A DNA stretch of 64,000 bases from Candidatus Heimdallarchaeota archaeon (GTDB lineage: Archaea; Asgardarchaeota; Heimdallarchaeia; Heimdallarchaeales; Heimdallarchaeaceae): NCBI GenBank assembly GCA_016839945.1, contig JAEOTE010000025.1, positions 1 to 64,000 on the forward strand, in the 5' to 3' direction. Positions 8,722 to 54,202 of this stretch are shown piece after piece. Position numbers and translations under genes: made by a program. Each line of letters starts with the position of its first letter. Within the stretch, counting starts at the first letter, position 1. The notes under the pieces are model-generated. The model was not told the DNA's origin. It saw nothing but the letters and a program-made list of their open reading frames with translations, and did no database searches.

Positions 8722-10025
8722 TGGTGTCATCAAAAATGCATCATAGCAGAAATCTAGATACATTTGCAAGATTGCATCTACGAAAAGAAAAGAAAGGAAA
8801 TGGAATTTTATTAGTAAATGCAACAAGGATTTTTCACTTGAATAAAACTGCAACAGATTTCTTCTCTCGAATAATCGATAACAAAGATGATGAAGAAATA
8901 ATAAGAGAGATGAAAAGAAAATATAGAGTTGCAGAAGAACAACTTCGAATCGATTTAAAGGAACTTAAGCAATCTGTTGAAAACCTAATGAATAAACCAG
9001 ATATTGATCCAGTTCAAGATTTATCCCAAGATATTAGTCCTATGCTTGAAACTCCTTTTTCAGCACCACTTCGAATGGATTTAGCATTAACATATAAATG
9101 CAATAATAAATGTACTAAATGTTACGTTGAACAAACAAGAGATATTAAAGAATTGACTACAGAAGAGTGGAAAAATGTTTTAGATAAACTCTGGGAAATA
9201 GGAATCCCTCATGTAACTTTTACTGGAGGAGAACCAACTTTAAGAGATGATTTACCTAAACTTGTAGAGCATGCTGAAGATTTAGGTATAATTACAGGAT
9301 TAATTTCTAATGGTAGAAAATTAAAAGACAAGAAACTGGTTGAAGAGCTAGTTACAGCTGGAATTGATCACTTTCAGATTACAATTGAAAGCCATGACTC
9401 AAAAATTCATGATGAATTAAATGGTGCAAAAAATGCTTGGAAAGAAACAGTGGAAGGAATAAAGAATATTATTCCAACTCCCGTTTACATTATGACAAAT
9501 ACAACTCTTACTCCTTATAACATAAAAGATATAGAAAAAACTATAGAGTTCCTTGCTTCATTAGGAATTGACCATTTTGCAGCAAATGGAATTATCAAAT
9601 CAGGTGGAGGAAAGCAAGAAGAATTAGCTCTTTCTATTGATGAACTTGATGGAGTTCTAGATAGAGTAATGAAAAAAGCATCTGAATTAAAAATGGGTTT
9701 CTTGTGGTATTCTCCAACAAGATATTGTGATTTTAATCCAATAGATAAAGGATTAGGATTGAAACAATGTTCTGCTTCTCATATAGCAATGGCTATTGAA
9801 CCTGATGGAATGGTCATTCCGTGTCAGAGTTACTTTGAACCTCTAGGAAATATTTTAGAGACTAAATGGAGAAAAATATGGAACCATAAGACATCAAAAT
9901 CTCTCAGAAAAATGCAATATCTACCAGATGAATGCTTAGATTGTCCAGAAAGAGAAATATGTGGAGGAGGTTGTCCTCTAAACTATAAAGCTCCAATGAA
10001 TATATGTCGAGAAGCGTTTTCATGA
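8718..10025 (+). CDS. radical SAM/SPASM peptide-maturase-type enzyme with N-terminal PqqD/RRE domain
   Basis: RRE-like LNKTA..F....D..EII..M..KY.V.EE....D; CNNKCTKC; FTGGEP; SPASM C(x)nPDG.V.PC and CLDCPEREICGGGCP; ATGA overlap with upstream stop. Confidence 0.92.
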   Translation: MMVSSKMHHSRNLDTFARLHLRKEKKGNGILLVNATRIFHLNKTATDFFSRIIDNKDDEEIIREMKRKYRVAEEQLRIDLKELKQSVENLMNKPDIDPVQDLSQDISPMLETPFSAPLRMDLALTYKCNNKCTKCYVEQTRDIKELTTEEWKNVLDKLWEIGIPHVTFTGGEPTLRDDLPKLVEHAEDLGIITGLISNGRKLKDKKLVEELVTAGIDHFQITIESHDSKIHDELNGAKNAWKETVEGIKNIIPTPVYIMTNTTLTPYNIKDIEKTIEFLASLGIDHFAANGIIKSGGGKQEELALSIDELDGVLDRVMKKASELKMGFLWYSPTRYCDFNPIDKGLGLKQCSASHIAMAIEPDGMVIPCQSYFEPLGNILETKWRKIWNHKTSKSLRKMQYLPDECLDCPEREICGGGCPLNYKAPMNICREAFS

Positions 10026-10026
10026 T

Positions 10027-10794
10027 GTGCAAAATATGAGAATAAAATCAAAAGACATAGATTGGGGGGCAGATGTGGAACAGCAATTCATTCGTCAAGC
10101 TAGTTGGACTCGAGCATATAGAAACCAAATTTATAGACAAATTGGTATGATAAAAGCAAGAAATTTACTTGAAGTTGGTTGTGGAACAGGAGTTATTACT
10201 AAAGAACTTCAAGAAAAAACTTCAGCTAAAATAACTGCAATTGATTTTGATAAATCGATGATAGATATTGCAAAAGATTATGTGAGTGATGTTCGATTTC
10301 TTACTGAGAATGTGGAAGAACTATCTTTCAAAGATAAATCATTTGATTTTGTAGTTTGTCATTATTTTCTATTATGGATTTCAAACCCAGAAAAAGCTCT
10401 AAGCGAAATTGCTAGAGTCTGCAAACGAGATGCTACAATTGTTGCTCTTTCAGAACCTGATTATGGGGCATGGATTGAATATCCTGAAATGGGATTAGGA
10501 AAATATCACATTGAGTATTTGCAAAAAGAAGGAGCTGATCCTTTTATTGGAAGAAAAATATTATCACTTTTCGAATCAGCAGGATTGGAAACTGAATTAT
10601 CAGTAGTTGCACAAACGTGGAACCAAAATCTTCTAAAAGAAAATATAGGTGAAGAGTGGAAAAGAGTATTAGAAGCAGAATTAATAACTAAGAAAGAGTT
10701 TGATGAAATAATTAAGAAAGAAAATAAACTCATAAAGAAAAATCAAAGGATGATTTTCATTCCAGTTTTTACTGCAATAGGAAGGAAAAAATAA
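10027..10794 (+). CDS. class I SAM-dependent methyltransferase
   Basis: LEVGCGTG, TAID, SFDFV; GTG begins 1 nt after the rSAM stop (alternative ATG at 10036). Confidence 0.88.
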   Translation: MQNMRIKSKDIDWGADVEQQFIRQASWTRAYRNQIYRQIGMIKARNLLEVGCGTGVITKELQEKTSAKITAIDFDKSMIDIAKDYVSDVRFLTENVEELSFKDKSFDFVVCHYFLLWISNPEKALSEIARVCKRDATIVALSEPDYGAWIEYPEMGLGKYHIEYLQKEGADPFIGRKILSLFESAGLETELSVVAQTWNQNLLKENIGEEWKRVLEAELITKKEFDEIIKKENKLIKKNQRMIFIPVFTAIGRKK

Positions 10795-48012: not shown

Positions 48013-49059
48013 TTACTTCTTTGAAGAGGATTTCTTTGTTTTAGTAGATGATTTAGTCTTAGTTGTCGTTTTTGATTTTGGTTTTGTTTCAGTTTTCTTC
48101 TTTGCAGTTGTCTTAGGTTTGGTTGTAGTCTTGGGTTTTGGTTTGGTTGTAGTCTTAGGTTTTGGTTTTGCTACAGCTTTAGGTTTAGGTTTGGTTGTAG
48201 TCTTGGGTTTAGGTTTGGTTGTAGTCTTGGGTTTTGGTTTAGTTGTAGTCTTGGGTTTTGGTTTAGTTGTAGTCTTGGGTTTTGGTTTAGTTGTAGTCTT
48301 AGGTTTTGGTTTTGCTTCAGCTTTAGGTTTAGGTTTAGCTTCTACCTTGGTTTTTGGCTTAGCTTCTACTTTGGTTTTTGGCTTAACTTCTACCTTAGGT
48401 TTAGGTTTAGCTTCTACTTTGGTTTTTGGCTTTTTCACAACCTTCTTTTCTCTTTTAGGAACAATATCTGAAAGTCTAAGTCTGGAAGTTGATTTTATTA
48501 CTACACGATAATAAGATCCTGATTCTCCCATAAGTGGATTTCTTATAATTTTTATAACATCTCCAGGTTTTGCTTGTATCGCTTTAACAGCAGGATCTGT
48601 TTCCAATACTTTTGGAATTTGATGTTTTTCAATCTGATATTGTTTTAAGAAAGTATTAATCTCTCTGGAATTTAATCTCAAGTGCTGCGGTACATGTTCA
48701 TGATCAAAAATATTAAACAGAGGATTTGTACTGCTAATAATTTCAATTCCTAGCTTAACTGATTCTTTCTTTGCATAATGAGTCAAGGGAGCTTCTGCAA
48801 TTAATAATGCATTATCAATTTCATCTTCTTCTTGAAGTTTTCCTAAAATTCTGATTGTTTTTACTCCAATTTGGGGATTTTTAGGAAATCTTGCAATAAC
48901 ATTTGCTTTTCCACCATCTTCAACAGTCATTAGACCGTAGACATCAAGATAATCATCATCTTCTTTAGTCTTATCAATTTTAAAGCCTCGAAACTCAAGA
49001 ATTTCTTTGACTCCCTTAACAATTCTTTTTTCTTTAGCTTGTTGTTCTTTGGATACCAA
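48013..49059 (-). CDS. rpo5: RNA polymerase subunit Rpo5/RpoH with RPB5-like N-terminal domain and Lys-rich repeat tail
   Basis: Core [12 protein letters not shown]...IPKV..TDP......[10 protein letters not shown]...YYRVV; N-terminal [13 protein letters not shown]; KPKPKTTT repeats. Confidence 0.88.
48100..48432 (-). repeat. coding tandem repeat of about 24 bp (KPKPKTTT / KPKTKVEA octapeptides)
   Basis: Units such as ttggttgtagtcttgggttttggt, about a dozen imperfect copies. Confidence 0.9.
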
Positions 49060-49121
49060 GAGAGTTACCTCGCCATCCCTTTTTTTCTATGAATTTAAAA
49101 TTTTTTGACAAGTGAGAGCTT

Positions 49122-49487
49122 TCACTTTTCTTTTTCTTCTTCTTTTTTCGATTTTATTCGGATGTAGTAAGAACCGTCCTTATTTCTTGCAATGATTGGG
49201 TCATCATCATTAGATTCAACAATTAATTTATCAACGTCTACTTCAAAAACACCTTCTTTTGTCAAACGAATAGCTTCTAATCCCTCTTGAATGTCAGTAT
49301 CTTTTATTTCCCTATCTATAATAAGATCTAATTCGTGTTCTACCCTCTCATCACCTGAAGGTTCTCTGAATGTTTTAAATTTAAAAGATCCACAATATGG
49401 ACAACCATTAACAATTATTTCTGTGGATAATGCTAATTCTTTCTCGCAAATCGCACATATTGTTTTCTTTTTGGTTTGTTCTGACAT
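49122..49487 (-). CDS. oapC: Zn-ribbon protein, DUF2072 (OapC-like)
   Basis: CAIC...I..GCPYCGS.KF; E.IR....G.FE.D...L; GSY.I. Confidence 0.75.
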   Translation of the reverse strand: MSEQTKKKTICAICEKELALSTEIIVNGCPYCGSFKFKTFREPSGDERVEHELDLIIDREIKDTDIQEGLEAIRLTKEGVFEVDVDKLIVESNDDDPIIARNKDGSYYIRIKSKKEEEKEK

Positions 49488-49527: not shown

Positions 49528-50382
49528 TTACTCCATTTTAATGCTTGAATTATATAGAAATTTTTCATTATATCCACAATTATTACATCCTTTTTCCTGA
49601 AGATCTTCAATCATTTTGTAATCCCCACCTTCACCAATATAATATATTTCGCCACATTCACACAAGTAAGGATAAGGAAGCACATTGCTTTCTCTATAAT
49701 ACAATGGACCAAAATAATGATCTGAAATTGTTTCCTTCGAATCTGGTTTAGCTTGTAGTATATATAAATCCGAACTTTTTCTGTCTAAAGGTGTCTTAAC
49801 ATCGTACTTATTAAAATTAGGGAGAACTTCTATTAACTCAAGTTTCATCTTATCTATCATTTTCTGAATTAACTCTTTTTTTTCTTCCTCAATATCAAAA
49901 GAGAAAAATATTTGAGCTTTATCATCTTTTTTTGCACATTGAACAGCTCTTGACAGACCTAGTTCTAATCCTTCTTTTGTCATGGATGGTTCAATGAAAA
50001 TATAATCAAACTGATTCTTCAATACGTTTATCATACGTATTCTGATGTCATGATTGATATATCGAATTGTACGTATTTTATGTTTAAATTTCATTTTAAA
50101 TACGATCTCAGGCACTCTCTTATCAATGTCTAGAACAGCTAAATCCTTTGGCTTTGACATTATTCCTATACTTAGTGCAGTAAGATCCATATCACCAAGT
50201 AAGATAACTCGTTTTCCATCATAATCTTCTGGATTAACAAGTAGAGATCTCTGTAAGCTTGTTTTTTCTGTTATATAATACTGATCGAGTTCCTGATTAG
50301 GCCCCCCCCTATAATTCTTTAGTATGCTATAAGCATCAGATATTTTTTGTTTAAGTTCTCCTTCTAAAGAATGGATTGTCAT
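49528..50382 (-). CDS. branched-chain polyamine synthase (BpsA/DUF43)-like protein with C-terminal Zn ribbon
   Basis: LDQ.Y.T, LLGDMDLT.L (cf. GDDDLTS), VLDIDKR, FD.IF.EP..T..G; CECG...CNNC. Confidence 0.72.
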   Translation of the reverse strand: MTIHSLEGELKQKISDAYSILKNYRGGPNQELDQYYITEKTSLQRSLLVNPEDYDGKRVILLGDMDLTALSIGIMSKPKDLAVLDIDKRVPEIVFKMKFKHKIRTIRYINHDIRIRMINVLKNQFDYIFIEPSMTKEGLELGLSRAVQCAKKDDKAQIFFSFDIEEEKKELIQKMIDKMKLELIEVLPNFNKYDVKTPLDRKSSDLYILQAKPDSKETISDHYFGPLYYRESNVLPYPYLCECGEIYYIGEGGDYKMIEDLQEKGCNNCGYNEKFLYNSSIKME

Positions 50383-50466: not shown

Positions 50467-52731
50467 TTAGGAAAGAAATGTTAATTGTTTTAGAACACTG
50501 AACAATTGATCAAGGGGAAGTTGCTGAAGTTTCTTTGAATCTCTAGCTTGTCTTTCTAGTTCTTTCAACAGAATACTATACTCATATGCAGATTTAGCAA
50601 TTTGAGAAAATGCTTGATCAAAATGAGAAATAGTCTGAAGTATATCACTTGCACTTCTTGCGAATTTTGATCCATCAAGAAAATATGAAGCAGATTTGTA
50701 ATTATCTTTGCTGTTACTAGCTCCAAATCCAAGTATTGCAGTTTTAGTGGCTTCAAGAAATTCAATTAATGCATCTGCTAGATTTTTTTTCACTTCTATT
50801 GCAGTCCAATTAATATCTGATGCTTCAGTACCAAATAATTCCTTATGATCTAACAGTTCTTTACAATCTTCTGATATGCGTGAGTTTATTGCATCAAACA
50901 AATCAAAATTGCTAAATGCGTGATTAATAACTGATTCACAATTAGCTTTAATGGTTGGTTCAGCAGAATTAGCAAGATTATAACCTTGAGCGAGTTTATC
51001 AATAACTGTGTTCAAGAAGAGAAATTGTCTGGTTAATTCAAACAGACGTAGCTCAACATCTTGTCCTTGTATGAATGTTTGACTATATCTTTGCTCCACC
51101 CAAACGCTATCAATATTTGATTCACCACTTAATTGAGATATTTCTAATGCTTTTGTTGAGAAGTAATGAGCTTTTGCATGATATATCAAATCTAGCACTT
51201 CATTCACTTCCTTATCCTTAAGATATAATTCAAGATTAATTGAATTTGCAATGAACTCCAAGCATTCAATATCTTTAACAATATAGACTTTCCTTTCTGT
51301 TTTCGGGAGGAAGTATGCTGACAATTTTATATTGTTAATATCTTCTAATAGCGTCTCTACATTTTCAACTGTAACTTTCTTCCCTTTTTTCTCCATACTT
51401 CTAAGTTGTTCTGCAATGTCTTTTGTTGCATATTCTAATCTTTCAATAAATCTAGAGAAATTTTGTTCTGCTCTCTTTATTGCCTCTGCATGTGGAACTT
51501 TTTCTAAGATTGATATCTTGATTTCTTGAACATAATTGAGATAAACAAAAGGTAAACTACTTACATAATTTATATTGACTTTTAATCCTGGTCTATTTAC
51601 TATACTCTCGATTTGCATAATTGTATCTTGGATTTTTCCATCCTCTTTTGTTGGAATTATATCAATTAGCTGAGAAGTTTTCGCTGCTAATTCTGATATA
51701 CTGTGCCAAAAAGTGTGAAGAGTTTCTTTCTTGATAATTTCTTCTTTAAATTTCAAACTCCAATCATCAATTTTAGTATTTTTTGTTAATATTTCTAGTG
51801 CTTCTTTTTCTAATCCTAAAACTAGATTGAGGTACTCCACGCTAGCTCTAAAACTATCATCCTTTGCTGCTTCAAAGCTTAAGCGTAAATAATGATCAAT
51901 CAATTCATTGTTTCTCAAAGCTTGATTTATAGGTATTTGGTTATTTTTTATTTGCTTAGCTTGTAGTTCTGGATCATCAGTTAACCCTTCATAATTCTCC
52001 AAAGCTTTCCGCAAATGAAACAAACTTCTTTCGAAAACAAAATGCGAAGCTATGGGATCTCTCCACCACCAATCTTCTCCCAATCTGTTTAAGAATTGAG
52101 AAGTGAAAGATACATCAAATCTTGCTTGAGACAGTTCATAGGAACCTCTCTCTTCTAATAATTTCATATTTTCACCACTTTCTGGAGATTCTTCAAGAAG
52201 CTGCAGTAAGTATTGCTTTTGATTTAGTAATAGAAATGCTAGCATAACTTCTTCAATGCTTGATGATTTGGGGTGATTTGAATCAAAATAAGTTTGCGAT
52301 ATACTATTTAGAATTCTATACCCTTCAACATATGATGAGCAATAAACTGGGGAAGGACTCGTTTCAAAAATTCCAGTATTGACGATGTCAGCATAGATTA
52401 TCATTAAAATTGCTAACTCCATTTGAAATTCCTGTAAATTCTCAATCCTGAATGTAAGATTCTCTTTTCTTTGCTTATCTTCTTCAATTTGTGATTTATC
52501 TCTTGTCCATTCATCCAAGTATCTTCTGTATAACAAATGAGATAGAGATGAAACATCAGAAAGTGAATCTGCGCAAAAACGAGAAAAGCTTAACCAGATT
52601 TGATTAATTTCCTCTAATTCATCAATTTGGACAAAAGATTGATAGATTCTTTCTCTTTCAAGTTCCATTAGTACAAATTGTTTGAAGGGTGAGTCTCTAA
52701 GTAGTTCGATTGTTTCTTTTAAAAATAACAT
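50467..52731 (-). CDS. large all-helical hypothetical protein
   Basis: 754-aa ORF, helical-solenoid-like composition. Confidence 0.75.
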   Translation of the reverse strand: MLFLKETIELLRDSPFKQFVLMELERERIYQSFVQIDELEEINQIWLSFSRFCADSLSDVSSLSHLLYRRYLDEWTRDKSQIEEDKQRKENLTFRIENLQEFQMELAILMIIYADIVNTGIFETSPSPVYCSSYVEGYRILNSISQTYFDSNHPKSSSIEEVMLAFLLLNQKQYLLQLLEESPESGENMKLLEERGSYELSQARFDVSFTSQFLNRLGEDWWWRDPIASHFVFERSLFHLRKALENYEGLTDDPELQAKQIKNNQIPINQALRNNELIDHYLRLSFEAAKDDSFRASVEYLNLVLGLEKEALEILTKNTKIDDWSLKFKEEIIKKETLHTFWHSISELAAKTSQLIDIIPTKEDGKIQDTIMQIESIVNRPGLKVNINYVSSLPFVYLNYVQEIKISILEKVPHAEAIKRAEQNFSRFIERLEYATKDIAEQLRSMEKKGKKVTVENVETLLEDINNIKLSAYFLPKTERKVYIVKDIECLEFIANSINLELYLKDKEVNEVLDLIYHAKAHYFSTKALEISQLSGESNIDSVWVEQRYSQTFIQGQDVELRLFELTRQFLFLNTVIDKLAQGYNLANSAEPTIKANCESVINHAFSNFDLFDAINSRISEDCKELLDHKELFGTEASDINWTAIEVKKNLADALIEFLEATKTAILGFGASNSKDNYKSASYFLDGSKFARSASDILQTISHFDQAFSQIAKSAYEYSILLKELERQARDSKKLQQLPLDQLFSVLKQLTFLS

Positions 52732-53581: not shown

Positions 53582-54202
53582 TTATGAATTTGGTATTTGA
53601 CGAATTACATTGTTATATAGTAATCCCTTAGCTGCTTTTTCAGCGTCATTTTCAGATAGTTTCATTAGTTTCACTATATCATTTAATGTGGCTGATCCTT
53701 TGTATTTTAGCAATGAGAGTACCTTTTCTTGTTGAGGACTGAATATCTGTGCCGCATCTCTCCTTATAGTCAGTGGATTAAGTTCTAATTTAGATTCTGA
53801 TAAATTACTTAGAGGTTTGCTATACTTTTTTAGTTGTTTGTCAACGAAATGTTTCATTATCGAATACTGTTCAACCCTCCCATTCCAATCAGTTAATGAT
53901 TCTGAAAAGCGATTATGGAATTCATTCTGGATATCTTCCAGATTTTGTCTAATAGTTTTTTCATCATCACTACTATCTACACAAGCTACTGTAACAGTTT
54001 GATTACCAGTTATGTAAATGAACTTATAACTAGCGGTTTGAAGATAATCACAACCTTTGTCGATATTTTGAGCAAAAATCTCAATAGCACTCAAGAAGCT
54101 AGTAATTAAATTCTCATCATGATCTATGCTACCATACTTTCTATGATATAGACATTCGCCTGTATCTTTTGCAATCCATATATTATGTAGCATAGAATTC
54201 AA
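53582..54202 (-). CDS. longin-like domain protein with C-terminal winged helix-turn-helix
   Basis: IWI...TG.CLY.RKY....DENLITSFLSAI..FA; L..I...F...F; C-terminal wHTH pattern. Confidence 0.72.
   Translation of the reverse strand: MNSMLHNIWIAKDTGECLYHRKYGSIDHDENLITSFLSAIEIFAQNIDKGCDYLQTASYKFIYITGNQTVTVACVDSSDDEKTIRQNLEDIQNEFHNRFSESLTDWNGRVEQYSIMKHFVDKQLKKYSKPLSNLSESKLELNPLTIRRDAAQIFSPQQEKVLSLLKYKGSATLNDIVKLMKLSENDAEKAAKGLLYNNVIRQIPNS

Follow-up and report, generated by a model that had tools for sequence, protein, structure and literature searches.

The window analysed here is a stretch of 64,000 nucleotides (nt) from a Candidatus Heimdallarchaeota archaeon of the family Heimdallarchaeaceae (assembly GCA_016839945.1, contig JAEOTE010000025.1, positions 1 to 64,000 of the forward strand). 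The subject of this report is its rpoH/rpo5 gene, coding for the Rpo5 (RpoH) subunit of RNA polymerase, and especially the extra N-terminal domain of the product, which as judged from its sequence is homologous to the jaw of eukaryotic RPB5, with the same domain order and the same junction to the C domain. The open reading frame (ORF) begins at 49059 with TTG, runs on the minus strand, and ends at 48013. The product of 348 amino acids (aa) consists of an N domain (aa 1-114), an Rpb5_C domain (aa 115-187), and a tail (aa 197-348). The following features were recorded at the locus.

48013..49059, minus strand: complete rpoH/rpo5 gene, 348 codons and stop, TTG start (ORF list and translation)
48718..49059, minus strand: N-terminal domain, aa 1-114, Mrr-like PD-(D/E)XK, RPB5 jaw homologue (AlphaFold2, PDB profile, HHalign, Pfam)
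48499..48717, minus strand: Rpb5_C assembly domain, aa 115-187 (PF01191, 79 bits, E 2e-22)
48016..48471, minus strand: low-complexity tail, aa 197-348 (composition script)
48113..48429, no strand: tandem DNA repeat of 24 nt, also read as 48 and 72 nt (Tandem Repeats Finder)
49060..49121, minus strand: upstream spacer, 62 nt (direct sequence reading)

The TTG start is supported by the homologues, which open with MVSKEQ at the equivalent position, and a start at residue 44, where the following in-frame Met lies, would fall within the N-domain fold. On the spacer, a TATA-like TTTTAAAT at 49093-49100 represents a putative promoter, and GAGGT at 49067-49071, 7 nt ahead of the TTG, a putative ribosome-binding site. 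The initial annotation placed a two-domain Rpo5 at 48496-49059. Such a subunit is encoded there, but the span covers residues 1-188 only, with 48496 at the end of Rpb5_C; the reading frame continues to 48013 and adds a 152-aa tail that the annotation lacked.

Rpb5_C module and RPB5-like N domain

The second part of the product matches RNA_pol_Rpb5_C (PF01191) over the full model (positions 1-73), with 79 bits against a gathering cut-off of 23.5 in Pfam. Where polymerase structures have been solved, it acts as a clamp on two parts of the largest subunit. Residues R173 and R185 are invariant in family alignments A2 and A5 and align with the arginines of IIR...YR in human RPB5. In yeast Rpb5, R200 and R212 are the conserved arginines that form salt bridges with the largest subunit (Zaros 2007, PMC1802627); R173 and R185 would correspond to them, and by analogy the archaeal C domain may clamp its largest subunit through this pair. 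A second short rpoH, for which a check had been recommended, was found neither in the own assembly (3.0 Mb, 88% complete), where a six-frame search gave this gene as the sole Rpb5_C match, nor in the closed genomes G026 and G074 of the same family, with one match each. At the level of sequence, this is the one Rpo5/RpoH gene found for the organism, and the C-terminal part of its product is the universal Rpb5_C module.

The claim of the initial annotation that this archaeal Rpo5 carries an N domain of the eukaryotic RPB5 type was borne out in profile searches. A profile of residues 1-114 (alignment A3) was compared with all 177,635 distinct PDB chain sequences. The top 11 matches were all RPB5 from animals, plants, and yeasts (E 1.6e-7 to 0.036), with Arabidopsis NRPB5 aligned over residues 2-98, and no nuclease chain was found among the matches. 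Against 1.84 billion representative proteins, the same profile gave 44 matches at E <=1e-3. The best of them (E <=1.5e-09) were full-length archaeal proteins with the N domain and Rpb5_C (about 180-250 aa), or short fragments of such proteins; eukaryotic RPB5 came next (E 1.4e-8 to about 1e-4), and true Mrr_cat enzymes appeared only at E 4e-4 or weaker.

Profile-profile comparison in HHalign was done with an RPB5_N target of nine green-lineage sequences and one unidentified eukaryotic sequence. The N domain matched it with 97.8% probability (E 9e-13, 99 columns), the N domains of other Asgard archaea with 97.7% (E 1.4e-12), and those of Bathyarchaeia with 94.8% (E 5.5e-8, 46 columns). For the N domains of Asgard archaea, the best match is with those of Bathyarchaeia, and vice versa (98.9%, E 1e-17). 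A true Mrr enzyme, P0085 (Mrr_cat 91.5 bits), was matched to the archaeal N domain with 93% probability (E 3e-7, 97 columns), while its probability against the eukaryotic RPB5 N domain was 2%. The archaeal N domain is therefore a sequence intermediate on the way from Mrr to the eukaryotic jaw.

A HMMER profile of residues 1-196, built from 23 family members, aligns to residues 63-209 of solved human RPB5. In this alignment an archaeal segment pairs with FPEEPKVGIKTIK of human RPB5, and an (A)-led stretch including LTHYAKK pairs with (A)LIVVQQGMTPSAKQ, including MTPSAKQ; the motif pairs given in the initial annotation are real, and the resemblance is well above chance (E 1.6e-7 for the N-domain profile in the PDB, 9e-13 in HHalign). 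The insertion that eukaryotic RPB5 has between helix 1 and the sheet is missing here, with gaps of 10-13 residues against Arabidopsis and green-algal RPB5, and the N domain is 114 aa long versus about 125-142 aa in eukaryotes.

In the AlphaFold2 (AF2) model of residues 1-196 (predicted local distance difference test, pLDDT, 80.5), a PD-(D/E)XK fold without active site sits directly N-terminal of Rpb5_C. The top 36 Foldseek matches of this model are full-length eukaryotic RPB5 (E about 1e-12, about 205 columns, template modelling score about 0.6), with archaeal RpoH chains of 75-80 aa ranking below them and matching the C domain alone at 39-47% identity. The N domain modelled alone (pLDDT 89) has the minimal alpha-beta-beta-beta-alpha-beta-alpha-beta PD-(D/E)XK fold. 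In VIA-align, Arabidopsis NRPB5 was superposed on it with Z 10.2 over 106 residues and with the highest identity (21%), and the N domain of African swine fever virus (ASFV) RPB5 with Z 8.9.

The catalytic Asp of a true Mrr enzyme aligns with D39, and the Mrr Q-A-K aligns with (I)-A-R57, where Gln/Glu is gone and Lys is replaced. Across diverse archaeal N domains, R24, G65, R70, and T93 are the only invariant residues, and no conserved catalytic set (acidic/K triad) was seen in their alignment. The N domain represents a Mrr-type PD-(D/E)XK fold in which the catalytic (E/Q)xK was lost, and it is predicted to be inactive. Eukaryotic RPB5_N is also catalogued as a PD-(D/E)XK fold without active site, listed for 'Eukaryota' only (PMC3424549).

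Origin of the two-domain subunit

A maximum-likelihood (ML) tree was computed by quick search from 54 sequences aligned over 191 columns, with eukaryotes sampled almost all from the green lineage. Heimdallarchaeaceae (99) and, on a long branch, a clade of eukaryotes and giant-virus-like sequences (100) were recovered according to the Shimodaira-Hasegawa-like approximate likelihood ratio test (SH-aLRT). The phylogeny proposed in the initial annotation thus delivered both clades, but not the attachment point of the eukaryotes, which is in a polytomy.

The preferred reading, with a probability of about 80%, is that Rpo5 of this organism is a three-part subunit, composed of Rpb5_C, a dead Mrr-like domain homologous to the RPB5 jaw, and a polycationic tail, and that the two domains were fused in archaea and inherited by eukaryotes. 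A dead nuclease domain of Mrr type would have been joined to RpoH in archaea, and eukaryotes would have inherited the two-domain subunit and added the insertion afterwards. The jaw part of eukaryotic polymerases thus probably arose in archaea. An origin before eukaryotes, as suggested at the outset for two-domain RPB5, fits the wide occurrence of the long form in Asgard archaea and Bathyarchaeia (described below), and the preferred reading as a whole is further supported by the status of the gene as sole rpoH and by the RPB5-specific sequence of its N domain.

Several observations weigh against this reading. Over residues 12-109, three Pfam families were matched weakly, NA-iREase1 with 24.3 bits, Mrr_cat with 21.2, and RNA_pol_Rpb5_N (PF03871) with 14.3, so that both nuclease families outscore Rpb5_N; the last, a search that the initial annotation had advised, missed its gathering score of 27 and aligned at profile positions 64-84 only. 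The Mrr_cat score (PF04471) is just above its gathering value of 21 for aa 1-115 alone and falls to 17.9 bits for the whole protein, and other archaeal two-domain forms score 26-43 bits with it. When Foldseek was given the N domain by itself, EndoMS/NucS came out on top, ahead of about 25 RPB5 chains, and in VIA-align AF1548 (Z 10.7) exceeds NRPB5 (10.2) and NucS (9.6), so the fold is not RPB5-specific. It is equally close to Mrr-like nucleases, and it is the sequence and the architecture that give the RPB5 specificity. In the AF2 model, the placement of the domains relative to each other is uncertain (predicted template modelling score 0.56, linker pLDDT <50). In the ML tree, the clade of eukaryotes and giant-virus-like sequences forms a polytomy with Asgard groups, by which vertical descent from Asgard archaea is not resolved, and the presence of the two-domain form in Bathyarchaeia permits other histories. 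An affinity to generic Mrr or restriction-endonuclease folds only, the outcome that the initial annotation had set against its own claim, did not arise, as the nearest non-archaeal relatives are eukaryotic RPB5 N domains.

One rival is convergence, in which archaea and eukaryotes would each have fused an unrelated Mrr-type domain to RpoH and the archaeal domain would not be an orthologue of the jaw. The generic, minimal PD-(D/E)XK fold, structurally as near to AF1548 and NucS as to RPB5, speaks for such a history, and the Pfam ranking of Mrr_cat before Rpb5_N and the repeated addition of extra domain copies (forms of 372-500 aa) are in line with it. Nevertheless, convergence is quite improbable: eukaryotic RPB5_N is the closest non-archaeal sequence relative, ahead of the whole and very large Mrr family; domain order, junction, and loss of the active site are all common to archaeal and eukaryotic forms; and the similarity of Mrr to the eukaryotic domain is detectable only via the archaeal one. 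A transfer in the reverse direction, with the two-domain gene arising in eukaryotes or giant viruses and gained later by sediment archaea, could be argued from the compact RPB5 (181-188 aa, near the archaeal length) on giant-virus-like contigs and from the ML tree, which gives no polarity. It is highly improbable, as most Asgard families have the long form as their single rpoH, at least 80 Bathyarchaeia species have this form too, and the archaeal N domains, mutual best matches between Asgard archaea and Bathyarchaeia, are without the eukaryotic insertion and retain the Mrr similarity that the eukaryotic domain has lost. The C domain is, moreover, 39-47% identical to Pyrococcus, Thermococcus, and Sulfolobus chains versus about 23-28% to eukaryotic chains in Foldseek.

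A third rival, in which the N domain would be an active nuclease or serve in defence while tethered to the polymerase, with no structural role as jaw, is extremely improbable, although D39 (aligned with the catalytic Asp of Mrr), E19, and R57 are invariant in the close family. These three residues are not conserved across other archaeal N domains; the (E/Q)xK position on strand 3 reads hydrophobic-A-R, without an acidic residue or Gln; the best Pfam match is a family of 'inactive restriction endonuclease'; and the eukaryotic counterpart is listed without active site, as cited above.

The RPB5 N domain was called eukaryote-only by Zaros 2007, Korkhin 2009, Wojtas 2012, and Steczkiewicz 2012. 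No report of an archaeal RPB5 N domain was found in the open-access literature. The domain is unmentioned in Eme 2023, in a 2026 review of archaeal small subunits, and in two structure-based Asgard surveys of 2026. If the archaeal two-domain Rpo5 is borne out, the origin of the jaw moves back into archaea, as happened earlier for Rpb8; the source of the jaw would be an inactivated restriction nuclease of Mrr type, and the archaeal domain would supply the sequence link that was missing; and there would be material to test how downstream DNA enters archaeal polymerases without Rpo13.

Distribution, basic tail, and genomic setting

The 51 close homologues are from Heimdallarchaeaceae or Heimdallarchaeota metagenome-assembled genomes (MAGs) and are annotated simply as 'subunit H'. 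Rpb5_C was found in 282 of 301 Asgard genomes, mostly one per genome, and in most Asgard families it lies in an open frame of about 185-245 aa. ORFs extracted from 20 such families all code for a nuclease-like N domain and Rpb5_C. According to exact-sequence look-ups, the long-form lineages include Hodarchaeales, Thorarchaeota-labelled genomes (f11), Jordarchaeales/Jordarchaeum, and Borrarchaeum. Short forms (79-125 aa) are present in Odinarchaeum yellowstonii (f8) and in families f14, f18, f19, and f13. With a broad N-domain profile (positive control 2e-16), a separate N-domain gene was not found in the Odinarchaeum genome or in representatives of f18 and f19, and the f14 genome gave a marginal match only (E 0.045); by this search, a split gene was ruled out in the representatives of f8, f14, f18, and f19. 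A sister family of the same order (f2) has Rpo5 of 372-500 aa with two or three nuclease-like domains before Rpb5_C; examples are L033 905-2023 (plus strand) and P0066 (481 aa). Many of the Thorarchaeota-labelled f11 genomes show two Rpb5_C matches; often there are two rpoH genes of the two-domain type in tandem, separated by about 50 nt (L017 690-1253 and 1301-1885, plus strand).

Outside Asgard archaea, at least 80 species of Bathyarchaeia/Bathyarchaeota encode a 183-aa two-domain form at full length. In a sample of 251 genomes from the phylum of Bathyarchaeia, only 23 of the 150 matches listed lie in long frames. Because of the TTG start, some Bathyarchaeota and Thorarchaeota two-domain entries are clipped in databases to the short form, an annotation problem that is flagged here. 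On Bathyarchaeota CP070730.1 (L039 1501-2049), the NCBI protein of 115 aa starts from an internal ATG, while the conserved frame of 183 aa starts from a TTG 68 codons upstream. Likewise, a Thorarchaeota entry of 86 aa is in the same 90% cluster as the 187-aa form (P0176 and P0318 are examples of clipped entries). Two-domain rpoH of the Bathyarchaeia type was also filed under bacterial MAGs of Krumholzibacteriaceae and Acidoferrum (L045, DATKLC010000100.1, and L105, DASPTR010000162.1, respectively), probably due to binning contamination.

Of the 152 residues in the tail, 38% are Lys, 22% are Thr, and 17% are Pro; its net charge is +51 and its pI 10.8. It contains ten KPKPKxxx octads, seven of them KPKPKTTT, encoded by the tandem repeat (period 24, 8.2 copies, 89% matches); the repeat number may be inexact in this metagenome assembly. 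The closest homologues aligned, from independent assemblies and presumably of the same genus, are 62-72% identical over the whole length (alignment A1) and 72-81% over aa 1-195, and have basic tails of 59-127 aa with other repeat units. The most distant homologues aligned are 48-60% identical over the whole length and 55-69% over aa 1-195; six of these seven have short acidic tails (23-64 aa, net charge -6 to -19), and the seventh, P0035, has a nearly neutral one (42 aa, +1). The basic tail appears confined to the closest relatives of the Heimdallarchaeota genome. It is presumably disordered, and it fits an electrostatic element, because its composition is conserved and not its sequence. An artefact was ruled out, since a K-rich continuation without stops recurs in more than 20 homologues from independent assemblies. 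The Histone H1/HC2-like family PF07382 had no match in the protein at E up to 1 in Pfam; among the homologues, it was recorded only in the tails of P0023 and P0026. The resemblance is compositional. The antisense ORF at 48119-48511 (plus strand, 130 aa) is repetitive, is a mirror reading of the tail repeat, and was rejected as a gene.

The neighbours of rpoH are unrelated to it: genes for an OapC-like zinc ribbon and a BpsA_C-like protein upstream, and cofD, cofC, and an M24 peptidase gene downstream. The gene directly upstream (49122-49487, minus strand) codes for a 121-aa zinc-ribbon protein with a match to Pfam OapC (origin-associated protein C) of 43 bits. Further upstream lie 49528-50382 (minus strand), whose 284-aa product has a CxxC...CxxC segment at the C terminus and matches BpsA_C (branched-chain polyamine synthase) with 98 bits, and 50467-52731 (minus strand), an ORF of 754 aa without Pfam match at E 1e-3. 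Further away, 53582-54202 (minus strand, 206 aa) has a sub-threshold match to Longin (regulated-SNARE-like, 22.7 versus 26.2 bits) and is a candidate eukaryote-signature protein. Archaeal rpoH is usually described as adjoining rpoB. Here, rpoB (1138 aa) is on a separate contig (C3, 45-3461), whose start, 44 nt ahead of rpoB, leaves the upstream side unreadable, and no rpoA-sized ORF was found within 5.5 kb after rpoB. In the closed genomes G026 and G074, which belong to the same family, 450 kb and 685 kb, respectively, separate the single rpoH from rpoB. In the Heimdallarchaeota genome, the genes of the usual rpoH-rpoB-rpoA cluster seem to be scattered.

Comparison with known systems

Eukaryotic RPB5/RPABC1 (POLR2E, yeast ABC27; e.g., PDB 1dzf and 7eu0_E) is composed of PF03871 and PF01191. 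It has the same order of a dead PD-(D/E)XK jaw and then Rpb5_C, and shares with the archaeal form the motifs RGY at the end of helix 1, FP..P.VGVKTI(R/K), and T-x-x-A-K (TPSAK in human), as well as the invariant arginine pair of the C domain. The archaeal form differs in lacking the insertion of 13-20 residues between helix 1 and the sheet and in its N domain, which is below the Pfam Rpb5_N threshold and still Mrr-like. The polycationic tail present here is absent from the eukaryotic RPB5 sequences examined. Eukaryotic RPB5 is common to Pol I, II, and III, whereas the archaeal form serves a single polymerase. Canonical archaeal Rpo5/RpoH (about 75-90 aa; 8cro_H, 4qiw_H, 2waq_H, 1hmj) is the same essential subunit with the same C domain, but has neither N domain nor tail.

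Nucleases of the Mrr type and their inactive derivatives (PF04471, PF22722 NA-iREase1, AF1548 in 1y88, and the C domain of NucS/EndoMS) have the same fold as the N domain. Unlike them, the archaeal domain has lost (E/Q)xK, is fused to a polymerase subunit, and is nearer to RPB5_N in sequence. RPB5 of giant viruses and ASFV (8q3b_E, and metagenomic forms of 181-188 aa) is also a compact two-domain protein of similar length, but the giant-virus-like forms reach Pfam Rpb5_N, group with eukaryotes in the ML tree, and have no basic tail. The contigs with the 181-188 aa forms are probably giant-virus sequences; on one of them, L116 (PJEL010001494.1, RPB5 at 10001-10558), the neighbour genes are mostly without Pfam match, with an FtsJ methyltransferase and an HMG-box protein nearby.

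The jaw of eukaryotic Rpb5 contacts downstream DNA about 15 nt ahead of the bubble (PMC1802627), and in archaeal polymerases with Rpo13 its place beside Rpo5 is occupied by that subunit (PMC3479171; PMC2675907). By analogy, the N domain described here would sit at the lower end of the DNA cleft, as in Pol I, II, and III, in the space filled by Rpo13 in Sulfolobus. Rpo13 (Sulfolobales; PDB 2waq and 4ayb) is a subunit of its own, with about 104 aa and a helix-turn-helix, and has no homology to this protein. Its Lys-rich C tail is required for binding of double-stranded DNA, which is abolished by deletion of the tail, and it also has a Glu-rich N tail (PMC3479171); tails rich in Glu/Asp are found in the more distant members of the Rpo5 family studied here. 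The polycationic tail may bind double-stranded DNA non-specifically, in the manner of the Lys-rich Rpo13 tail or of histone H1 with its tail, and might raise the hold of the polymerase on DNA or chromatin. An unlikely extension of this is that the Thr-rich octads (KPKPKTTT) form a regulated repeat platform, on which phosphorylation of Thr would switch between binding and release of DNA or chromatin, as a functional analogue of the Rpb1 C-terminal domain or the histone H1 tail that replaces the role of Rpo13 in Heimdallarchaeaceae. In the protein described here, a homologue of the jaw domain and a Lys-rich tail are combined in one subunit.

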